NCBI GenBank assembly: GCA_963732385.1
Contig: CAVSZB010000007.1
Location: 1,376,001 to 1,440,000 of the forward strand
Reading direction: 5' to 3'
Origin: an uncultured bacterium
GTDB taxonomy: Bacteria; Krumholzibacteriota; Krumholzibacteriia; LZORAL124-64-63
DNA length: 64,000 bases
Shown: positions 9,161-17,315 of the stretch, piece after piece
Layout: each line of letters starts with the position of its first letter
How positions within the stretch are numbered: the stretch's first letter is position 1
Position numbers and translations under genes: made by a program
Notes under the pieces: model-generated
The model's database searches: none
Seen by the model: only the letters and a program-made list of their open reading frames with translations
Told to the model about the DNA's origin: nothing

Positions 9161-10066
9161 TCAGATCTCCCGCAGGAAATCGACGATCTCGGCATGAAGA
9201 CCGGCGGGACCGTGGATCTGGAGGATCCGGTGCCCCCCCTCGGGGTAGAGCCGGAAGCGCGAGGCCTTGTGCCGCGCCTTGCGTTGGACCATTCGCAGGG
9301 AGACGGCCGCAATGCGCTCATCGTCCTGGCACTGCGCCGCGTAGACCGGCATGTCGAGCCGGGAGAGCAGCGGCCGCGCCTTTTCCATCGCCTCGAGTAT
9401 TTCGAGGCTCCAGCCGTACTTGCGCCGCACCCACTGCAGGCGGTGCACATTCAACCGCAACAACAGGCGCACGAAGAGCGGGAGGCACGGTTCGAGGGCC
9501 GGCGCGAGCAGCACGACGCCCTGCGGTTTCTCCTCGCCTGCGAGATGGATGGCGATCGCCGAGCCGAAGCCCAGACCGACGACGTGCACACGCGGGCCCA
9601 CCTCGCGCAGGAACCTCAGCCGCAGCCGGGCCTCCTGCAGGCAGGCGCGCCAGAGAACATCACCCAGGCCAGGCGCAAGGTTGGCGCGGGTCGGCAAGAG
9701 AGGAGCGTAAACGCTGAAACCGGCGTCGTGGATCGCCTCGGCCAGCGGACGCATCTCGGCCGGCGTGGAGGTGGCGCCATGGAGGAGCAGGACCGCGTCC
9801 GCTCCCTCCGCTCCGCCGAGCATGATCGAACGGTCGACCGGCGGAATGCCCCGCCGTTCCTCCAGTTCCGCGCGCAGTTTCTGGTGGGCGCGCAGCAGAC
9901 TGGCGCGGGCGCGCGGCGTGTCGGGACGCTGCCCGCGGGTGGTTTCCAACTCCCAGGCGGTCAAAGCGTGCCGGATCGTCTCCGGCCGGACTGCCCGCTC
10001 GCGCTCCTTCTCATCCGCCGGAAGAGGGCCGCCGGACCGTGCCGTGCTGTCGCTTTCGCTCGCCAA
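9161..10066 (-). CDS. Alpha/beta-hydrolase (carboxylesterase/monoacylglycerol lipase-like) lacking the nucleophile Ser
   Basis: VLLLHGATSTP, nucleophile elbow GLGFG rather than GxSxG, QDDERI and GGHRIL. TTG start with GAGG RBS. Confidence 0.75.
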   Translation of the reverse strand: MASESDSTARSGGPLPADEKERERAVRPETIRHALTAWELETTRGQRPDTPRARASLLRAHQKLRAELEERRGIPPVDRSIMLGGAEGADAVLLLHGATSTPAEMRPLAEAIHDAGFSVYAPLLPTRANLAPGLGDVLWRACLQEARLRLRFLREVGPRVHVVGLGFGSAIAIHLAGEEKPQGVVLLAPALEPCLPLFVRLLLRLNVHRLQWVRRKYGWSLEILEAMEKARPLLSRLDMPVYAAQCQDDERIAAVSLRMVQRKARHKASRFRLYPEGGHRILQIHGPAGLHAEIVDFLREI

Positions 10067-10439
10067 ATCCTCATCCCCGTCCGCGGCGCGGGCCGCTCAG
10101 CCGATGTGCCCGGGCCGGTCGCAGATGACGTCCGGCCACGCTCCCGGTTCCCGACGAACCGACACCGCGTGATCCTGGTGCCTGCCGCTCAGGACGAAGG
10201 CCAGACCCCTGCCGGGCCGCTTCGCGGCCGGCAGGTCCGCCCCGGGATCATCTGAAATGAATAGGTCCTCCGGCGCGGTGACGCCAACCCTTTCCGGCGC
10301 TTCCCGGCAGATCAGCCCCTCCGATTTGCCGCTCGTGACCGCCACGCAGCCGGCGGCAGCCTCCCGGGCGGCTCTGCCGGCCGACCGGGCCGGGGGTCGC
10401 CCCGACACCCCCTCGACCTCAGGCGGGCTGGCGCGGGGC

Positions 10440-11615
10440 TCACGCAGAGGCGGCAGGCGGACCCTCCTTCCCACCGGATGCGGCGAGCGCGGCCAGCTCT
10501 GCATCGTAGCGAGGCGCCAGGCGCTCCCAGCAGAATGCGTCGCACGCGGGGGGCAGGCCGCAGACGTGCCCGCAGCGCCCCGCCAGAACGTCGCGCAAAA
10601 GCGCTGTCAGCCCCGCCTCGCCGTCGTAGAGATGCCGGCCCCGGCACTGGCGACCGTAGAGAGAGGGGTAGACCTGCTCACGCGGCAGCACGGCGAAGGC
10701 GCCGGCATGCACCGCTTCGGCGACCGCGATGCCAAAGTACTCCTGTGCCGCGCAACTGACGACCACATCCGCCCTCGCGAGCCAGGAATCGTAGCCCTGG
10801 CCCGCCGGCGCCTCCCCCCAGGCCACCACGCGCGAGCCGAGGCATTCGCGCAGCGGAGCGAATGCCTCCTCGCGGCCGCGCGGATCGCCGAGCAGGGCGA
10901 CCCGGAACGGCACCCCCTCGGCCGCAAGGCACCGCAGCGCGCCGACCAGCCACTCCGGACGCTTGTCGAACTCCCAGCGGTGGTTCCAGAGGATGAGCGG
11001 AGCTTCGCCATCGCGGGGCCAGGTCGGTCCGGCATCATCCGCGCACGGCCCGCCCAGATACGGCGCACCACCGTCGTCGGGACGACAGGCGCGGGCGAGG
11101 CCAACCGGCAAAACCGCACTTTTGGCCTCGATCCGGGGCCGCACGCCACGCGGGATCGCTTCGGGCATCCGACCGAGATAGGCGGGAATTCCATCCAGAA
11201 AAAGACCCCTGTGGTACTCGGAATTAAAGATCACGCGGTCGGCGGCCAGCGCCGACACGATGTTGGTGGCCCCGAAATGGAAGTCGAATTCCTCTTCCGG
11301 CGACAGGGGGTAGGTCAACTGGTTTTCGTGCATATAGAGTAGAAGGGGCTGGCGATCGTAGGGGGGATCGAGCATCCCGCGGAAGTCGGCCACGTTCAGG
11401 AAATCGGTGGCCAGGATCAGGTCGCACGGCGGCCGCGCAGCGTTGATCGCGTCGGCGAACCAGGGGGCGGCGCCTCGCAGGCGCCATTTCCAGAAGCGCG
11501 CCGGCAGCGTCCAGCCGTGGACCCGGTGGCCGGAACGGGCCGTTAATCCTTCCCGGAAGGCGCGATGCGAACCCCCGTCATACGGTTCTACGAACAGGAT
11601 ATCCAATGGTGACAA
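10440..11615 (-). CDS. DUF3524 + GT4 glycosyltransferase, homologue of tRNA-queuosine alpha-mannosyltransferase (GTDC1/QTMAN)
   Basis: EPYDGGSH, TLPARFWKWR, YMHENQLTYP, ADRVIFNS, WNHRWEFDK and the GT4 E-x7-E motif EYFGIAVAE. Confidence 0.85.
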   Translation of the reverse strand: MSPLDILFVEPYDGGSHRAFREGLTARSGHRVHGWTLPARFWKWRLRGAAPWFADAINAARPPCDLILATDFLNVADFRGMLDPPYDRQPLLLYMHENQLTYPLSPEEEFDFHFGATNIVSALAADRVIFNSEYHRGLFLDGIPAYLGRMPEAIPRGVRPRIEAKSAVLPVGLARACRPDDGGAPYLGGPCADDAGPTWPRDGEAPLILWNHRWEFDKRPEWLVGALRCLAAEGVPFRVALLGDPRGREEAFAPLRECLGSRVVAWGEAPAGQGYDSWLARADVVVSCAAQEYFGIAVAEAVHAGAFAVLPREQVYPSLYGRQCRGRHLYDGEAGLTALLRDVLAGRCGHVCGLPPACDAFCWERLAPRYDAELAALAASGGKEGPPAASA

Positions 11616-11797
11616 GGGGTTGTCCTCCCTGAACCCGTTCCGTAACGGCTGCGGACGCGGCGCGCAGTCCGCCGCGTTGATGCGGCCGGCCTCCTCATTA
11701 TATATTAGCAGGGCGCGGCCCCGGTATCACCTCCACGGGCAGATCGTGAGCGCAGGTTGACGGTCTGTCTGTGGCCCGCCTGAAAGGACCCCTTCCC

Positions 11798-12178
11798 ATG
11801 CCATCGAGCCCGGCGCGTGAGATCGAGACCTTCCCCAATCCCAATCCGGAACGGGACTACGAAATCGCGTTCGACTGTCCGGAGTTCACCTGTCTCTGCC
11901 CGCTGACCGGACAGCCCGACTTCGCCCGCTTCCAGATCACCTATGTGCCGGACGGGACCTGCGTGGAACTGAAGTCGCTCAAGCTCTATCTCTGGTCGTA
12001 CCGGAACGAAGGAGCCTTCCACGAGGCGGTCACCAACCGGATCGCCGACGACCTGATCGCGGCCGTGCGGCCGCGGCGTCTCGCGGTCGCCGGAGACTGG
12101 TTCGTGCGCGGGGGAATCGCCACGCGGGTGCTCGTCACTTACGGACAGACCGACACCGGCGCTCAGGAGGCCCCTTGA
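11798..12178 (+). CDS. queF: NADPH-dependent preQ0 (7-cyano-7-deazaguanine) reductase, short type
   Basis: [49 protein letters not shown] before ATG 11798. Confidence 0.95.
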
Positions 12179-12247
12179 GCGTGACTCCCGGGGTCGACGC
12201 TTCGCCGCGCGACGTCACCGGCGCCGACCTCATCATCGACGGCAGCA

Positions 12248-13264
12248 TCACGACCTGAGCTCATCCGGCGGCACGACGAACGACAGCGCGCGTCCGCAGC
12301 CCGGACAGTGCGCGCCGTCGCGCAGCAGGACGCGCGTGGCGAACCCCTCGCGCGCGACACACAACTCACTGCAGTGCGGACAGACCGTGTCCGCGCCGCC
12401 GCGCAGCCGGACATTCCCCACGTAGACGTAATGCAGCTTCCGACGCGCGAACGCGGCGGCGCGGGCGAGCGTGGCCGACGGCGTGGGCGGCGCGCTGAAC
12501 TTCCAGTCGGGCCGGTAGGCGGAAAAATGCAGCGGCACGTCGCGCCCCACCTCGGCCACGAAATCGACCAGGCGCCCGATCTGCGCCGCCTCGTCGTTAC
12601 AGCCCGGGATGACAAGATTCGTCACCTCGAGATGCACGCCCAACTCCCGGCAGGTCCGGATCGTGGCCAGCACCGGCGCCAGGCTCGCCCCGCAGATCTG
12701 CCGGTAGAAGCCGTCGTCCATCGCCTTGAGGTCGATGTTCGCGGCGTCGACCAGCGGCAGCAGCTGGCGCAGTGGTTCCGGGTTGAGGAAACCGTTCGAT
12801 ACGATGACGTTGCGCAGTCCGGCCGCGCGGGCCAGCCGCGCCGTATCCCGTACGAATTCGTACCAGACGAGCGGCTCGCTGTAGGTGAACGCCACGCCGA
12901 TCGAATGGCGCGCCAGCGCGAGCGCGACCACCTCCTCAGGCGCAGAGACGGCGGCGGCCGCAGCGCGTCCCTGGCTGAGCGTCCAGTTCTGGCAGAACCG
13001 GCAGTGGAGGTTGCACCCCTGCGCGGCGATCGACAGGATCGAAGCCCCGGGGTGGAAATGGTAGAGCGGCTTCTTCTCGATCGGATCGACGGCGGTCGAG
13101 ACGATGCGGCCGTACTCCTTCGCGATCATGCGCCCACCGGCATTGGTGCGCGACCCGCAGGGGCCGTCGCGCCCGTCCGGCAGCCGGCAGCCGTGCGGAC
13201 AGAGCTCGCACTGGACCGCGCCGTCGGGCAGGGCGCTCCACCAGGCCGCCACGTGCGTCACCAT
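12248..13264 (-). CDS. amrS: AmmeMemoRadiSam system radical SAM enzyme
   Basis: QCELCPHGC...GPCGSR, DPIEKKPLYHFHPG, GCNLHCRFCQNW, AFTYSEP, DAANIDLK, C-terminal CPHC...CPGC. Confidence 0.9.
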   Translation of the reverse strand: MVTHVAAWWSALPDGAVQCELCPHGCRLPDGRDGPCGSRTNAGGRMIAKEYGRIVSTAVDPIEKKPLYHFHPGASILSIAAQGCNLHCRFCQNWTLSQGRAAAAAVSAPEEVVALALARHSIGVAFTYSEPLVWYEFVRDTARLARAAGLRNVIVSNGFLNPEPLRQLLPLVDAANIDLKAMDDGFYRQICGASLAPVLATIRTCRELGVHLEVTNLVIPGCNDEAAQIGRLVDFVAEVGRDVPLHFSAYRPDWKFSAPPTPSATLARAAAFARRKLHYVYVGNVRLRGGADTVCPHCSELCVAREGFATRVLLRDGAHCPGCGRALSFVVPPDELRS

Positions 13265-14352
13265 GGCGCCTCCGGCAACCGCCCGCCGTTGGCAACGACC
13301 GTGGCGGCGTTGCGCCGCAGGCCGTCGGGATGGGCGCGCCAGAGCGGCGACCGGCAAAAGCGCCGGCGGAACTCCTCCGCGTCGATTTCGAGCAGGTCGG
13401 CCAGGCTCGCCTGGGCATGCGCCGGATCGAGCCCGTACTCCGGACGGACCGCCCCGCCGAAACGCGCCGCCCGACGGTTCCAGGGACAGACCGCCTGGCA
13501 GATGTCGCAGCCAAACAGCCGTCCCCCCTGGCGGGCCGCCTCGCCCACCGGCAGACGGCCGTGCCATTCGATCGTCCAGGTGGAGATGCAGCGGTTGGCG
13601 TCGATCACGAACGGGATGTCGAGCGCTCCGGTGGGACAGGCGTCCTGACATAGCCGGCAGGAACCGCAGCGCGAGGCCGGTCCCGGCCCGGCCGTGCGGG
13701 ACGCCGAAACGGAGGCGGTTCGCGGCGTCGCGCCCCAGAGCGGGGCCGCCGCCGGCGCTCCCGCTGCCGGCAACCCGTCCACCGCCAGTCCGACTGCGGC
13801 CACGCCGAGGAACAGCCCCGATCCAAGCCGCTCATGGATCAGGCAGCTGTTGCGCCCGAAGAAACCGAGCCCGGCGAGCCAGGCGTACTCCCGCTCCAGA
13901 TAGGGTCCGGTATCGACCGCGGCGTGCGCAGGGAACGGGCCGAGCGCCCGACGCAGGTCATCGACCACCCCCTTCACATCGGAGAGCAGGAGGTCATGGT
14001 AATCGCGCCCGCGCGCGTAGCGGGCCACACCGTCGGTCCAGGGACGACCGGGCGCGGCGCCCTCCCACGGCGAGCGATCGTCGGGCGACCACCCGGCCAC
14101 ATAACGCTGCGCGAAGACGAGCAGCGCGCGCGCCCAGGGGCGCTGCACGGTCGGATCAACGCGCGCGTCCGGATCGCGGGCGAGCCAGGCGAGACCGGCG
14201 TGCCGGCCGTCCGCCAGCCAGGCGTGAAAGGTGTCGGCATGCGGCAGCGGACAGGGCAGCGCCACCGCACCGGCCAACGCGATCCCGCGCGGCGGGCAGA
14301 ACTCGCCCAGCAACCGGGCCAGGCGCTCCGACGTGACGCGCGGGTCCGTCAT
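13258..14352 (-). CDS. queG: Epoxyqueuosine reductase (cobalamin/4Fe-4S)
   Basis: VARYARGRDYH, VDTGPYLERE, AGLGFFGRNS, CGSCRLCQDACPTGA, CISTWTIE, FGCDICQAVCPWN; GAGG RBS before ATG 14352. Confidence 0.92.
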   Translation of the reverse strand: MTDPRVTSERLARLLGEFCPPRGIALAGAVALPCPLPHADTFHAWLADGRHAGLAWLARDPDARVDPTVQRPWARALLVFAQRYVAGWSPDDRSPWEGAAPGRPWTDGVARYARGRDYHDLLLSDVKGVVDDLRRALGPFPAHAAVDTGPYLEREYAWLAGLGFFGRNSCLIHERLGSGLFLGVAAVGLAVDGLPAAGAPAAAPLWGATPRTASVSASRTAGPGPASRCGSCRLCQDACPTGALDIPFVIDANRCISTWTIEWHGRLPVGEAARQGGRLFGCDICQAVCPWNRRAARFGGAVRPEYGLDPAHAQASLADLLEIDAEEFRRRFCRSPLWRAHPDGLRRNAATVVANGGRLPEAPW

Positions 14353-14362
14353 GCCATCCACC

Positions 14363-15328
14363 TCAGGAACGCGCCGGCGGGACAAGCCGCGCCACCGCGT
14401 CGTCGTATCCGGCGAGCAGACGCGCCACGACTGCGGCCACGGTCGGCACGTCGTCGATCAATCCGGCCACCTGGCCGATCTCGAGCTCGCCCTCCTCCAG
14501 ATCCCCCTCGAGCATGCCGCGGCGCGCGCGCCCCTCGCCCAGCAACTCCGTCAGCGTCTCCCGCGACGCGCCGGCCGCCTCGAGCCGCATGATCTCGTCA
14601 CGGAAGCGGTTGCGCAACAGCCGCACCGGCACGAGCGGCTTGAGACAGAGCTGCGTGTCGGCCGGACCGGCCGCCACCACCGCCCGCTTCCAGTCCGGAT
14701 GCCCCGACGACTCCTCCGTGATCGCGAATCGCGACCCCACCTGCACCCCCTCCGCCCCGAGCGCCAGCGCCGCCGCCAGTTGCGCCCCGGTGGCGATCCC
14801 CCCCGCCGCGATGACAGGTATCTTCACGGCAGCGACGCACTGCGGCACGAGCACCAGCGTTGTCAGTTCCTCGCGCCCGTTGTGCCCCCCCGCCTCGAAC
14901 CCCTCGCACACCACCGCATCGCATCCCGCCTCCTCGCACTTGCGCGCCAGATCGGGATGCGCCACCACGTGCGCGCTGATGCAGCCCTCGCTCTTGAGCC
15001 GCCCCACGATCCGCTTCGGAGACCCGGCCGACGTGACGAAGATGCGCACCCCCTCCGTCAGCGCGACCTCGAGACACGCGGCGGCGTGAGGGTAGAACAG
15101 CGGCAGGTTCACGCCGAACGGGCGGTCGGTGAGCGCGCGCGTGGCGCGGATCTGCTCGTGCAGGAGATCGGGCCGCAGGGAACCGGCGCCGAGCAGCCCG
15201 AGACAGCCGGCCTCGGCCGCAGCGCCGGCGAGTCGCGCGCCGGAGTTATAGACCATGCCGGCCTGGACGATCGGATGGGCGATGCCGAACAGCTCGCAGA
15301 CGCGGTTGCGGGGCCAACGGGAGGTCAT
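14363..15328 (-). CDS. Nitronate monooxygenase / FabK-like flavin oxidoreductase
   Basis: PIVQAGM, TDRPFGVNL, EGFEAGGHNG, PVIAAGGI, GAEGVQVGSRF. Confidence 0.85.
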   Translation of the reverse strand: MTSRWPRNRVCELFGIAHPIVQAGMVYNSGARLAGAAAEAGCLGLLGAGSLRPDLLHEQIRATRALTDRPFGVNLPLFYPHAAACLEVALTEGVRIFVTSAGSPKRIVGRLKSEGCISAHVVAHPDLARKCEEAGCDAVVCEGFEAGGHNGREELTTLVLVPQCVAAVKIPVIAAGGIATGAQLAAALALGAEGVQVGSRFAITEESSGHPDWKRAVVAAGPADTQLCLKPLVPVRLLRNRFRDEIMRLEAAGASRETLTELLGEGRARRGMLEGDLEEGELEIGQVAGLIDDVPTVAAVVARLLAGYDDAVARLVPPARS

Positions 15329-15560
15329 CGGGCTCCTTCCGGAAAGATAGCTACGAGCAGGGAGGACAGCGCCTCGGCCCCCTCCCGGGCCAGACTAGCA
15401 TGCCGGGAGCCCGGAACGGACTGCAGGATGGCGCCCGGCCCGAACCAGACACCACCCAGGCCTTGTTAAAATATTTTACGCCTTGGAGTTGCTGGATAAT
15501 CACGGGGCGCTGGCCAGGCCTCGTCCGGCGGATGATCGGAGTCGATAACGCGCCCCGCGC

Positions 15561-17315
15561 TCAGGCCTCGTCAGCTCGCCGCAGGAGCAGGAAGGTGACG
15601 TCGTCGTTGAGCGGCACCTCGCCCAGGAACGCGCGCAGGTCGCTTACGATCGCCTCGGCGACCGCCTCGATCGGCTGGGCGCGCGCCTGGCACAACGCGG
15701 TGATCAGGCGTTCTTCATCGTAGAACTCCTCGCCCAGCGTCGCCTCCGGAATGCCGTCGGTGTGGATGCAGAGCAGGGCGCCCGGCGGGAGTTCGACGTC
15801 GGCGCTCCTGTAGACGGCGCCCGGGATGAGTCCGAGCGGGAGACCGGTCGACGAAAGGCGGCGCGCCGCGGTTGCGTCGTGGAGCAGGATCGGCGGGTTG
15901 TGCCCGGCGTTGACGTAGGTCAGCCGGTGAGCACGCGGGTCGAGCACGCCGATGAACAGGGTGACGAAGTGCAGGTCGTCGGACGCGTGCAGCAGTTGGC
16001 GGTGCACGCGCTCGACGACGGTTTCGAGCGCGCCTTTCTCGGCGTAGAGCACACGCAGCGCGGCCAACGTGTTGGACATCAGCAGCGCGGCGCCCATCCC
16101 CTTGCCGGTCACGTCGCCCACGACCACCACGACGCGTCCGTCTTCGAGCACCGCCGTGTCGTGCAGGTCGCCTCCCACCTCGTAGCACGGGATCTGGCGC
16201 GCCAGGATGTCGTAACCCGGCACTTCGGGCCGCGTGGTCGGCAGCAGGTGGCGCTGCACCTGCGCCGCGGCCGCGGCCTCGCGCGACATCCGATCCTTCT
16301 CGGCCTTCAGCTCGAGCAGCCGAACGTTGGCGATCTTCACCGCGATCAGGTTGGCCAGGAACGAGAAGAGACGCAGCTTTTCGGCGTCGTAACGCGCCAG
16401 CGGGTCATCGCTGTCGGCGTAGAGCAGGCCGATCGCCTGTTCGCTGTCGACCAGAGGAGCGACCATCGCCGAGCGCAACCGCGAAGCCACGATGCTCTCG
16501 CGACCGCTGAATCGCGCGTCAGACGGCGCGTCGTTGAGAACCATCGCCTCCCTGCCCCCGAGCACGGTATCGAGAAGCGTTCGGCTGAGGATGAGATTGG
16601 ACGTGTCCACAGCCTGCGCCGGACGCGACGCGAAAACCGTGAAGTCCCTGCCATCCTCCCGCGAAAGCAGGAGCAGGTAGCGCCGCGCCGGCACCAGCTG
16701 TTCGACCAGGCCAAGCAATTGGTCGCAGGTCCCGTTCAGGGGGCCCGGCAGGACGAGAAACTGGCCGACCTTCTCCAGGGCGCTCATCAGCAGACGATCG
16801 CCCTCGGGCAGCGAGGCGGGCGACACGTTCACCTGGTCGAGGCTGACCCGCGAGGCGGCGATCACCGAGAGTTCCGAGCCCGGACCGGCCGGACCGGCGA
16901 GCGAGTCGGCGAAGAGAGTCCGGCCCAGGGTCGCCTCGCCGCCTTCTGACACCACCATCATCAGGACCGAGCCAAGGCTGAGGCGGTCCCCGCGTACGAG
17001 CGACACCGGATCGGTCACGAGAGCGTCGTTCAACCACGTGCCGTTCTTGCTGCCGAGGTCCTGCACGGCGACGCGGTGCTCCTCCACCGCGATCTCGGCG
17101 TGCTCCCGCGACACGGACCGGTCGTCGAGCACGACATCGTTGACCGGTGCCCGTCCGAGCCGGTGCCGGCCCGGTCGCAGCGGCACCCGGATCTCCCGGC
17201 CCGCGAGCGAGCCTCTCAATTCGAGCAAGGTCCCTCCTGGTCGGACGGCGACGGAGCGGTCACGGGGGGAGCGGACAGGCGGCGCAACCCCTGAGCGCAG
17301 GCCTGATCCCACCAC
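15561..17315 (-). CDS. FHA + GAF + SpoIIE/PP2C phosphatase
   Basis: FHA (LGRAPVND, SVSREHA, DLGSKNGT), GAF (LRSAMVAPL...GLLYADS), SpoIIE (EVGGDL, GDVTGKG, NAGHNPP, HTDGIPE, NDDVT). Start uncertain. Confidence 0.88.
   Translation of the reverse strand: MVGSGLRSGVAPPVRSPRDRSVAVRPGGTLLELRGSLAGREIRVPLRPGRHRLGRAPVNDVVLDDRSVSREHAEIAVEEHRVAVQDLGSKNGTWLNDALVTDPVSLVRGDRLSLGSVLMMVVSEGGEATLGRTLFADSLAGPAGPGSELSVIAASRVSLDQVNVSPASLPEGDRLLMSALEKVGQFLVLPGPLNGTCDQLLGLVEQLVPARRYLLLLSREDGRDFTVFASRPAQAVDTSNLILSRTLLDTVLGGREAMVLNDAPSDARFSGRESIVASRLRSAMVAPLVDSEQAIGLLYADSDDPLARYDAEKLRLFSFLANLIAVKIANVRLLELKAEKDRMSREAAAAAQVQRHLLPTTRPEVPGYDILARQIPCYEVGGDLHDTAVLEDGRVVVVVGDVTGKGMGAALLMSNTLAALRVLYAEKGALETVVERVHRQLLHASDDLHFVTLFIGVLDPRAHRLTYVNAGHNPPILLHDATAARRLSSTGLPLGLIPGAVYRSADVELPPGALLCIHTDGIPEATLGEEFYDEERLITALCQARAQPIEAVAEAIVSDLRAFLGEVPLNDDVTFLLLRRADEA

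Follow-up and report, generated by a model that had tools for sequence, protein, structure and literature searches.

The subject of this analysis is a glycosyltransferase (GT) gene in a stretch of 64,000 nucleotides (the window) from contig CAVSZB010000007.1 of an uncultured Krumholzibacteriota bacterium. The predicted protein is related to animal QTMAN (GTDC1), the enzyme that mannosylates queuosine (Q) at position 34 of tRNA-Asp, and we propose that it probably places a sugar on Q34 of tRNA. That a bacterium would make glycosyl-Q is a reasonable hypothesis because the protein belongs to the QTMAN family and because the host is predicted to have the full Q pathway. An earlier note on this DNA had made the same proposal from the family motifs and from the nearby queF and queG genes; the first ground stands, the second does not: the que neighbourhood is accidental and the protein does not stand out within its family, and for these reasons the locus adds no special evidence. 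Judged from sequence, the biochemical hypothesis seems likelier to hold than to fail. If it holds, glycosyl-Q would be a second bacterial Q hypermodification, QTMAN would date from before animals, and small soluble enzymes would be at hand for a family of which the searched PDB copy contains no solved structure.

A QTMAN-family glycosyltransferase

10440..11615, minus strand: intact QTMAN/GTDC1-family GT-B glycosyltransferase of 391 amino acids, assigned from PF12038, a structure model and the animal homologue P0400

The gene starts with a TTG codon, has GGAGG 9 nt upstream and is present in one copy in the host genome. The profile search that the earlier note had suggested was run with Pfam; it matched the N-terminal QTMAN_N domain (PF12038) end to end, at 193.9 bits against a cut-off of 25 and over positions 2-168 of 168, and gave weak matches to C-terminal GT1 domains that fall just below their cut-offs. 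The structure model (predicted local distance difference test, pLDDT, 91.4; predicted template modelling score, pTM, 0.91) predicts a GT-B fold whose best match is to 6kih (Z 30.6, root-mean-square deviation 2.8, 328 residues). Among solved structures it comes nearest in fold to sucrose-phosphate synthase, BshA, PglA, PimA and similar enzymes, and no QTMAN-family chain was listed in searches of the PDB copy. The complete QTMAN_N domain and the predicted GT-B fold bear out the description of the gene as DUF3524-GT4. The motifs that the earlier note had named can be read in the window sequence as GGSH, TLPARFWKWR, YMHENQLTYP, WNHRWEFDK and EYFG; the human motifs that it gave were compared with P0400 only. 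Neither PADLOC nor PHROGs gave a match for the protein.

The relation to the animal enzyme was examined with an alignment of 134 sequences, in which the window protein is joined by 133 of 150 listed representatives of 50% clusters, fragments and long forms being excluded. The profile of this alignment matches P0400, the sole animal sequence compared, with probability 100 and an E value of 3.9e-65 over 352 columns. Of 38 columns that are at least 90% conserved, 16 fall in the QTMAN_N domain; 37 of the 38 are kept in P0400 and 36 in the window protein. H96, E97, R213 and E300 are invariant. The animal and window enzymes thus have in common their two-domain layout, their length class and nearly all of the conserved family columns, and this agreement, QTMAN_N domain included, supports a shared acceptor. 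On sequence grounds the window protein is a true member of the QTMAN family, and its nearest named relatives are proteins of Candidatus Krumholzibacteria.

A quick-stage tree, run in answer to the suggested phylogeny with animal GTDC1/QTMAN, gives the animal row a long branch in the midst of bacterial rows, and we draw no conclusion from it on where the animal enzyme arose. None of 10 looked-up cluster representatives has a eukaryotic name. The homologues include 2 long proteins, neither joined to a Q or tRNA domain, and Pfam matches nothing in the N-terminal extensions of P0141 and P0217. In the quick tree the GTs of Krumholzibacteriota are split among three clades, one of which also contains Geomonas and Chloroflexota sequences; this suggests transfers or old paralogues.

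Queuosine genes in the host and in other carriers

Does the host make the Q that such an enzyme would use? Its genome (3.82 Mb, 95.8% complete) holds adjacent tgt and queA genes at 680 kb of contig C7, queC with an adjacent QueE-like gene that scores under the cut-off at 856 kb of the same contig, and also queD, two folE genes, queF and queG, from which a full Q pathway is predicted. QueE was missed by TIGR04322 and a motif scan, and the QueE-like gene was then found beside queC. Given these positions of tgt, queA and queC, most of the host Q genes lie far from the GT. The host TGT is of the preQ1 type with the motif GGLAVG, and tRNA-Asp(GUC), tRNA-Asn, tRNA-His and tRNA-Tyr have GUN anticodons. 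The window enzyme differs from animal QTMAN in its setting, a bacterial host in which Q arises de novo through a TGT of the preQ1 type. A ManC-like gene scores 252.6 bits, below the cut-off of 373. In addition to its full de novo pathway, the host encodes a Q_salvage protein (PF10343, QNG1-type; 194.7 bits; G000:C5:418643-419443, L226), a family seen in 0 of 14 control genomes. GluQ-RS was not found in the host, where the best TIGR03838 match (231 bits against a cut-off of 276.7) lies on a full-length GltX. A gene first suspected to be gluQ proved to be a second GltX, and what TIGR03838 matches is GltX and GlnRS at full length. Within 21 kb (G000:C7:1328996-1349811) lie two full-length GltX-like genes together with one that is GlnRS-like.

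PF12038 is present in 142 of 201 Krumholzibacteriota genomes and in all 86 genomes of the host family, nearly always as a single copy, which is a housekeeping pattern. Its spread elsewhere is patchy, with 10 carriers among 150 Chloroflexota (seed excluded), 4 among 120 Spirochaetota and 0 among 14 control genomes. Carriers from other lineages were taken from a GTDB genome scan, of which the best 80 of at least 600 stretches were used; 7 family-type loci (L103-L109; queF 3.4-6 kb away in 4) were excluded as possible repeats of the family set, and 50 of the remaining 73, for which completeness is not given, were examined for Q genes. Carriers in the scan that exist in culture include Desulfosarcina alkanivorans PL12, Desulfatibacillum alkenivorans DSM 16219 and Geomonas diazotrophica Red69. 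In all, tgt accompanies the GT in 199 of 206 carriers (137/142 in the phylum, 48/50 in other lineages, 10/10 in Chloroflexota and 4/4 in Spirochaetota). The co-occurrence count suggested in the earlier note thus did not reveal frequent presence without tgt, but the background of tgt is high and only one clade is informative. In Krumholzibacteriota tgt is found in 194 of 201 genomes, and of the 7 without it, 5 are among the 142 carriers and 2 among the 59 non-carriers; all 15 non-carriers examined have queA and QueG or QueH, and among 15 carriers queA is present in 15 and QueG or QueH in 14. Among the 50 other-lineage carriers, 47 have queA and 43 have QueG or QueH above the cut-off, and in 4 of the remaining 7 a gene resembling QueG scores 122-141 bits. 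All four Spirochaetota carriers have tgt and queA, a count for which no background rate was measured. Strict mutual exclusion of GT and GluQ-RS was considered and rejected; 2 of the 50 carriers have both, and the host phylum gives no background, since none of 30 Krumholzibacteriota, carriers and non-carriers alike, has GluQ-RS.

The informative clade is in the Chloroflexota, where queA is present in 111 of 150 genomes, only 1 genome has both queA and the GT, and queA is absent from 9 of the 10 carriers, a pattern that seems adverse at first sight. Among queA-less genomes tgt is present in 9 of 9 carriers versus 11 of 30 non-carriers (Fisher p 0.0012, one clade), and the GT is found in 0 of 19 tgt-negative genomes. 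The nine queA-less carriers (L201, L204, L208, L209 and L211-L215) have a common divergent TGT with the motifs FDEL, GIVHGG and GGSLG, whose named relatives are Chloroflexales, and for this reason they count as one event; the same TGT type occurs in 2 non-carriers. They have no queC above the cut-off, queG was found in 0 of 5 tested and Q_salvage in 0 of 4 tested. This is the tgt-only pattern that is treated as queuine salvage in the part of PMC11570991 available to us, where the usual TGT motif is given as GG[LS][AS]G with exceptions noted. Taken together, the genome-level evidence agrees with a queuosine substrate but is weak. A second, more divergent TGT paralogue with GGWP at the pocket loop is present in 7 of the nine (L220-L225 and G370:C209), and that of G370 is split. 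In many further Chloroflexota a second gene resembling QueA scores below the cut-off.

Proposed reaction and alternative acceptors

In GT-B enzymes generally, the C-terminal domain holds the nucleoside diphosphate (NDP)-sugar. By extension, the C-domain of the window enzyme would bind the NDP-sugar, its QTMAN_N domain would bind the anticodon loop that carries Q34, and a hexose, likely mannose from GDP-mannose, would be passed to a hydroxyl of Q34 in tRNA, most likely with retention, to give hexosyl-Q. Animal QTMAN, as described in the portion of its report that we could consult, uses GDP-mannose and joins the sugar in alpha linkage to the allylic hydroxyl of Q34 in tRNA-Asp, independently of m5C38, the 5-methylcytosine at position 38 (bioRxiv 10.64898/2026.06.28.735034). 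The host tRNA-Asp has A38, in contrast to the C38 given there for human tRNA, and because the animal reaction is independent of m5C38 this difference would by itself be no obstacle. By analogy, the bacterial enzyme may keep the acceptor, donor and tRNA of the animal one. We would place transfer of mannose to tRNA-Asp in particular at somewhat under an even chance. A wider reading, which seems to us evenly balanced, is that bacteria of many phyla glycosylate Q34 with mannose or another hexose by means of QTMAN enzymes, that the animal enzyme descends from these, and that Chloroflexales follow an animal-style route from queuine uptake through TGT alone to glycosylation.

The known Q hypermodification of bacteria is that made by GluQ-RS (YadB, glutamyl-Q tRNA-Asp synthetase), which, so far as the sources available to us in part describe it, attaches glutamyl to the allylic hydroxyl that carries mannose in manQ. 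It differs from the window enzyme in being a GluRS paralogue that makes an aminoacyl ester rather than a glycoside. Within the part of PMC10690763 available, sugar-modified Q is described from animals only and glutamyl-Q from bacteria only. No bacterial glycosyl-Q or tested bacterial QTMAN homologue was found in the literature searched, some of it available in part, which did not include Zhao 2023 (Cell), Yuan 2019 (PNAS) or de Crecy-Lagard 2024 (MMBR), and databases already name bacterial homologues after QTMAN automatically. Retaining GT4-type GT-B enzymes (PimA, MshA, BshA and sucrose-phosphate synthase) are like the window enzyme in fold and in the C-terminal EYFG...E motif region, but they are only 11-18% identical to it and their sequence matches are confined to its C-terminal half.

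A scan of IMG/VR found a GT relative in 3 of 52 candidate stretches, representing 2 distinct proteins: one (L227, 2978-4057) adjoins folE, queC and a TGT-like gene, the other (L228, 5218-6417) adjoins folE and a QueE-like gene, and the third stretch (L229) has the same match. These phage proteins, which stand in 7-deazaguanine clusters (folE/queC/queE, TGT-like), resemble the family in an NHRWEFDK-type motif and C-terminal motifs, L227 with probability 98.8 over 146 columns. Unlike the family, they lie in a viral DNA context and on very long branches outside it in the quick tree. Because they match in the C-terminal half only and lack PF12038, their support for a deazaguanine link of the GT is weak. 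Nothing relevant on phage deazaguanine glycosyltransferases was found in the literature searched.

Several observations weigh against Q34 as the acceptor. The animal comparison rests on one tapeworm gene model, P0400, which is 30% identical to the window protein, is merged with a Snf7 gene and was named tRNA-queuosine alpha-mannosyltransferase automatically in UniRef, and GT4-type folds take many acceptors. No tgt was found in 7 of 206 carriers, including G090 at 97% completeness, and co-occurrence within the host phylum cannot discriminate since tgt, queA and QueG or QueH are near-universal in carriers and non-carriers alike. The Chloroflexales tgt signal is one event in one clade, and the GGSLG of its TGT is not an exact match to the GG[LS][AS]G given in the accessible part of PMC11570991 and is without the valine of GGLAVG. 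GluQ-RS co-occurs in 2 of the 50 other-lineage carriers. Linkage of the GT to que genes outside one family is not above chance (1 of 103 loci), and a second GT4 follows the GT in 4 Desulfobacterota-type loci (L117, L121, L125 and L138).

What else could the enzyme modify? It is possible, although we regard it as unlikely, that the acceptor has nothing to do with Q, being instead a small metabolite, a lipid, an envelope glycan or a protein, and that the enzyme was recruited to tRNA in the animal lineage only. The nearest solved folds, the missing que linkage outside one family, the patchy spread of the GT, the GT4 genes that follow it in four loci and the TreT-like gene in 1, and the HAD and alpha/beta hydrolase genes downstream of it in the host family would all suit such an acceptor; against this, 37 of 38 conserved columns including those of the N-terminal domain are common to animal QTMAN, none of the 19 tgt-negative Chloroflexota carries the GT, and the GT neighbours vary by lineage and are rarely glycan genes. 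Quite improbable, in our view, is another 7-deazaguanine compound as substrate, either free queuine or queuosine that is being salvaged or a tRNA with preQ1 or epoxyQ. The host does encode a QNG1-type Q_salvage protein, but this family is absent from all four Chloroflexales carriers tested. Those nine queA-less carriers cannot build the cyclopentene ring themselves, yet queC is also absent from them, so that preQ1 synthesis is not expected; the phage relatives in preQ0-type clusters are distant, lack PF12038 and fall far outside the family; and although 7 of 50 diverse carriers lack QueG and QueH above the cut-off, 4 of these have the QueG-like gene noted above.

Origin of the contact with queF

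The genes around the GT are as follows.

9161..10066, minus strand: alpha/beta hydrolase, downstream of the GT (profile match; 30/30 family loci)
10097..10534, minus strand: HAD-IIA hydrolase gene remnant, matching only residues 3-45 and 229-312 of the protein of congener G155
11616..11797, no strand: divergent intergenic region of 182 bp, whose GT-side half matches the intergenic region between GT and S8 peptidase genes in G155
11677..11706, plus strand: sigma-70-like site TTGATG-18-TATATT facing queF (consensus match only)
11798..12178, plus strand: queF, type II preQ0 reductase, with ATG at 11798 (TIGR03139 176.2 bits, cut-off 86.9)
12248..13264, minus strand: AmmeMemoRadiSam radical SAM enzyme (TIGR04337 328.3 bits, cut-off 220)
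13258..14352, minus strand: queG, epoxyqueuosine reductase (PF08331 36.4 bits, cut-off 25.1; TIGR00276 194.3, cut-off 200)
14363..15328, minus strand: FabK/nitronate-monooxygenase-like gene upstream of queG, a member of the family-wide synteny block

The layout that the earlier note had described is correct, in that GT and queF share the 182-bp divergent region and queG ends 1,079 bp past queF, which it had given as about 1.1 kb. It had not mentioned the AmmeMemoRadiSam gene, which lies between queF and queG, overlaps the end of queG with its start and converges on queF; no role for this enzyme was found in the literature searched. The one sigma-70-like site found compares with 0.1 +/- 0.3 in shuffles. 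No preQ1 riboswitch or other Rfam match was found within 9000-16000, and no tRNA gene was found in the window.

How did the GT come to face queF? Regions of 19 kb were compared for 30 of 86 family carriers and 30 of 55 other carriers of the phylum, picked for genus spread and contig size; one of the family loci had only 1.7 kb of upstream sequence. In 28 of the 30 family loci, G155 among them, the GT has upstream of it an S8 peptidase gene that starts 172-393 bp away, and direct contact of GT and queF is seen in 1, congener G200 (183 bp), so that a divergent promoter shared with queF fails as the ancestral state and S8 is the usual divergent partner. The G200 assembly (L039) is 62% complete and has many genes in frameshifted pieces, and is probably error-prone. 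Aligned with G155, the window matches on either side of a gap of 3.4 kb; its promoter-like site facing queF is the one that in G155 faces the S8 gene; and about 185 codons of the G155 HAD-IIA gene are missing, in frame, from the interior of the window copy. Given the S8 gene in relatives, this gap, the common site and the HAD deletion, the best reading of the GT-queF divergent pair is a recent loss inside an inherited block, and the S8 gene between GT and queF was likely lost in part of the host genus. Since the contact with queF stems from this likely loss, the neighbourhood is no evidence for the function of the GT; the arrangement is real, but it is no more than descent and gene loss give. 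We hold it very probable that the neighbourhood is the inherited gene order of one family.

The alternative, a Q-glycosylation locus in which GT, queF and queG are co-regulated and held together by selection, is highly improbable and already contradicted. Of the 30 family loci, 26 have queF within 9.5 kb of the GT, 25 of them at 3.3-8.3 kb, and 20 have queG within that range, and the genes diverge directly in both the window and G200, as selection would have it; but the same block equally keeps unrelated genes (alpha/beta hydrolase 30/30, S8 29/30, HAD 24/30), and tgt, queA, queC, the queE-like gene and queD are elsewhere in the host genome. The AmmeMemoRadiSam gene, present in 24 of 30 family loci, is tighter to queF and queG than the GT is, and the FabK-like gene is present in 17 of 30 within the fetched range.

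In wider sets of loci this alternative, and with it the use of the neighbourhood as functional context, fares no better. With 1.5-kb flanks, queF is found in 0 of the 30 best-scoring phylum loci. In the 30 Krumholzibacteriota loci of other families tblastn found none of tgt, queA, queC, queD, queF and queG; queE, folE and queH, which were not among the queries, do not occur among the immediate GT neighbours. The 73 other-lineage loci (1.9-21 kb each) have a que gene in 1, queC in L156. The co-localisation count that the earlier note had suggested therefore comes to 1 in 103 loci outside the family, where 1.0-2.2 would be expected by chance in the 1.55 Mb examined.

The immediate neighbours of the GT are mixed housekeeping genes that differ by lineage. 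Among 89 of 102 upstream and 81 of 103 downstream open reading frames, the remainder being close repeats or very short frames that were dropped, glycosyltransferases number 0 upstream and 5 downstream, with none in the window locus, and the GT is not part of polysaccharide clusters. Two of the four loci with a following GT4 also have a TPR gene upstream. In six Spirochaetales loci of one lineage (L124, L127, L129, L130, L151 and L176) an RsmB/F-type RNA m5C methyltransferase gene lies directly after the GT.

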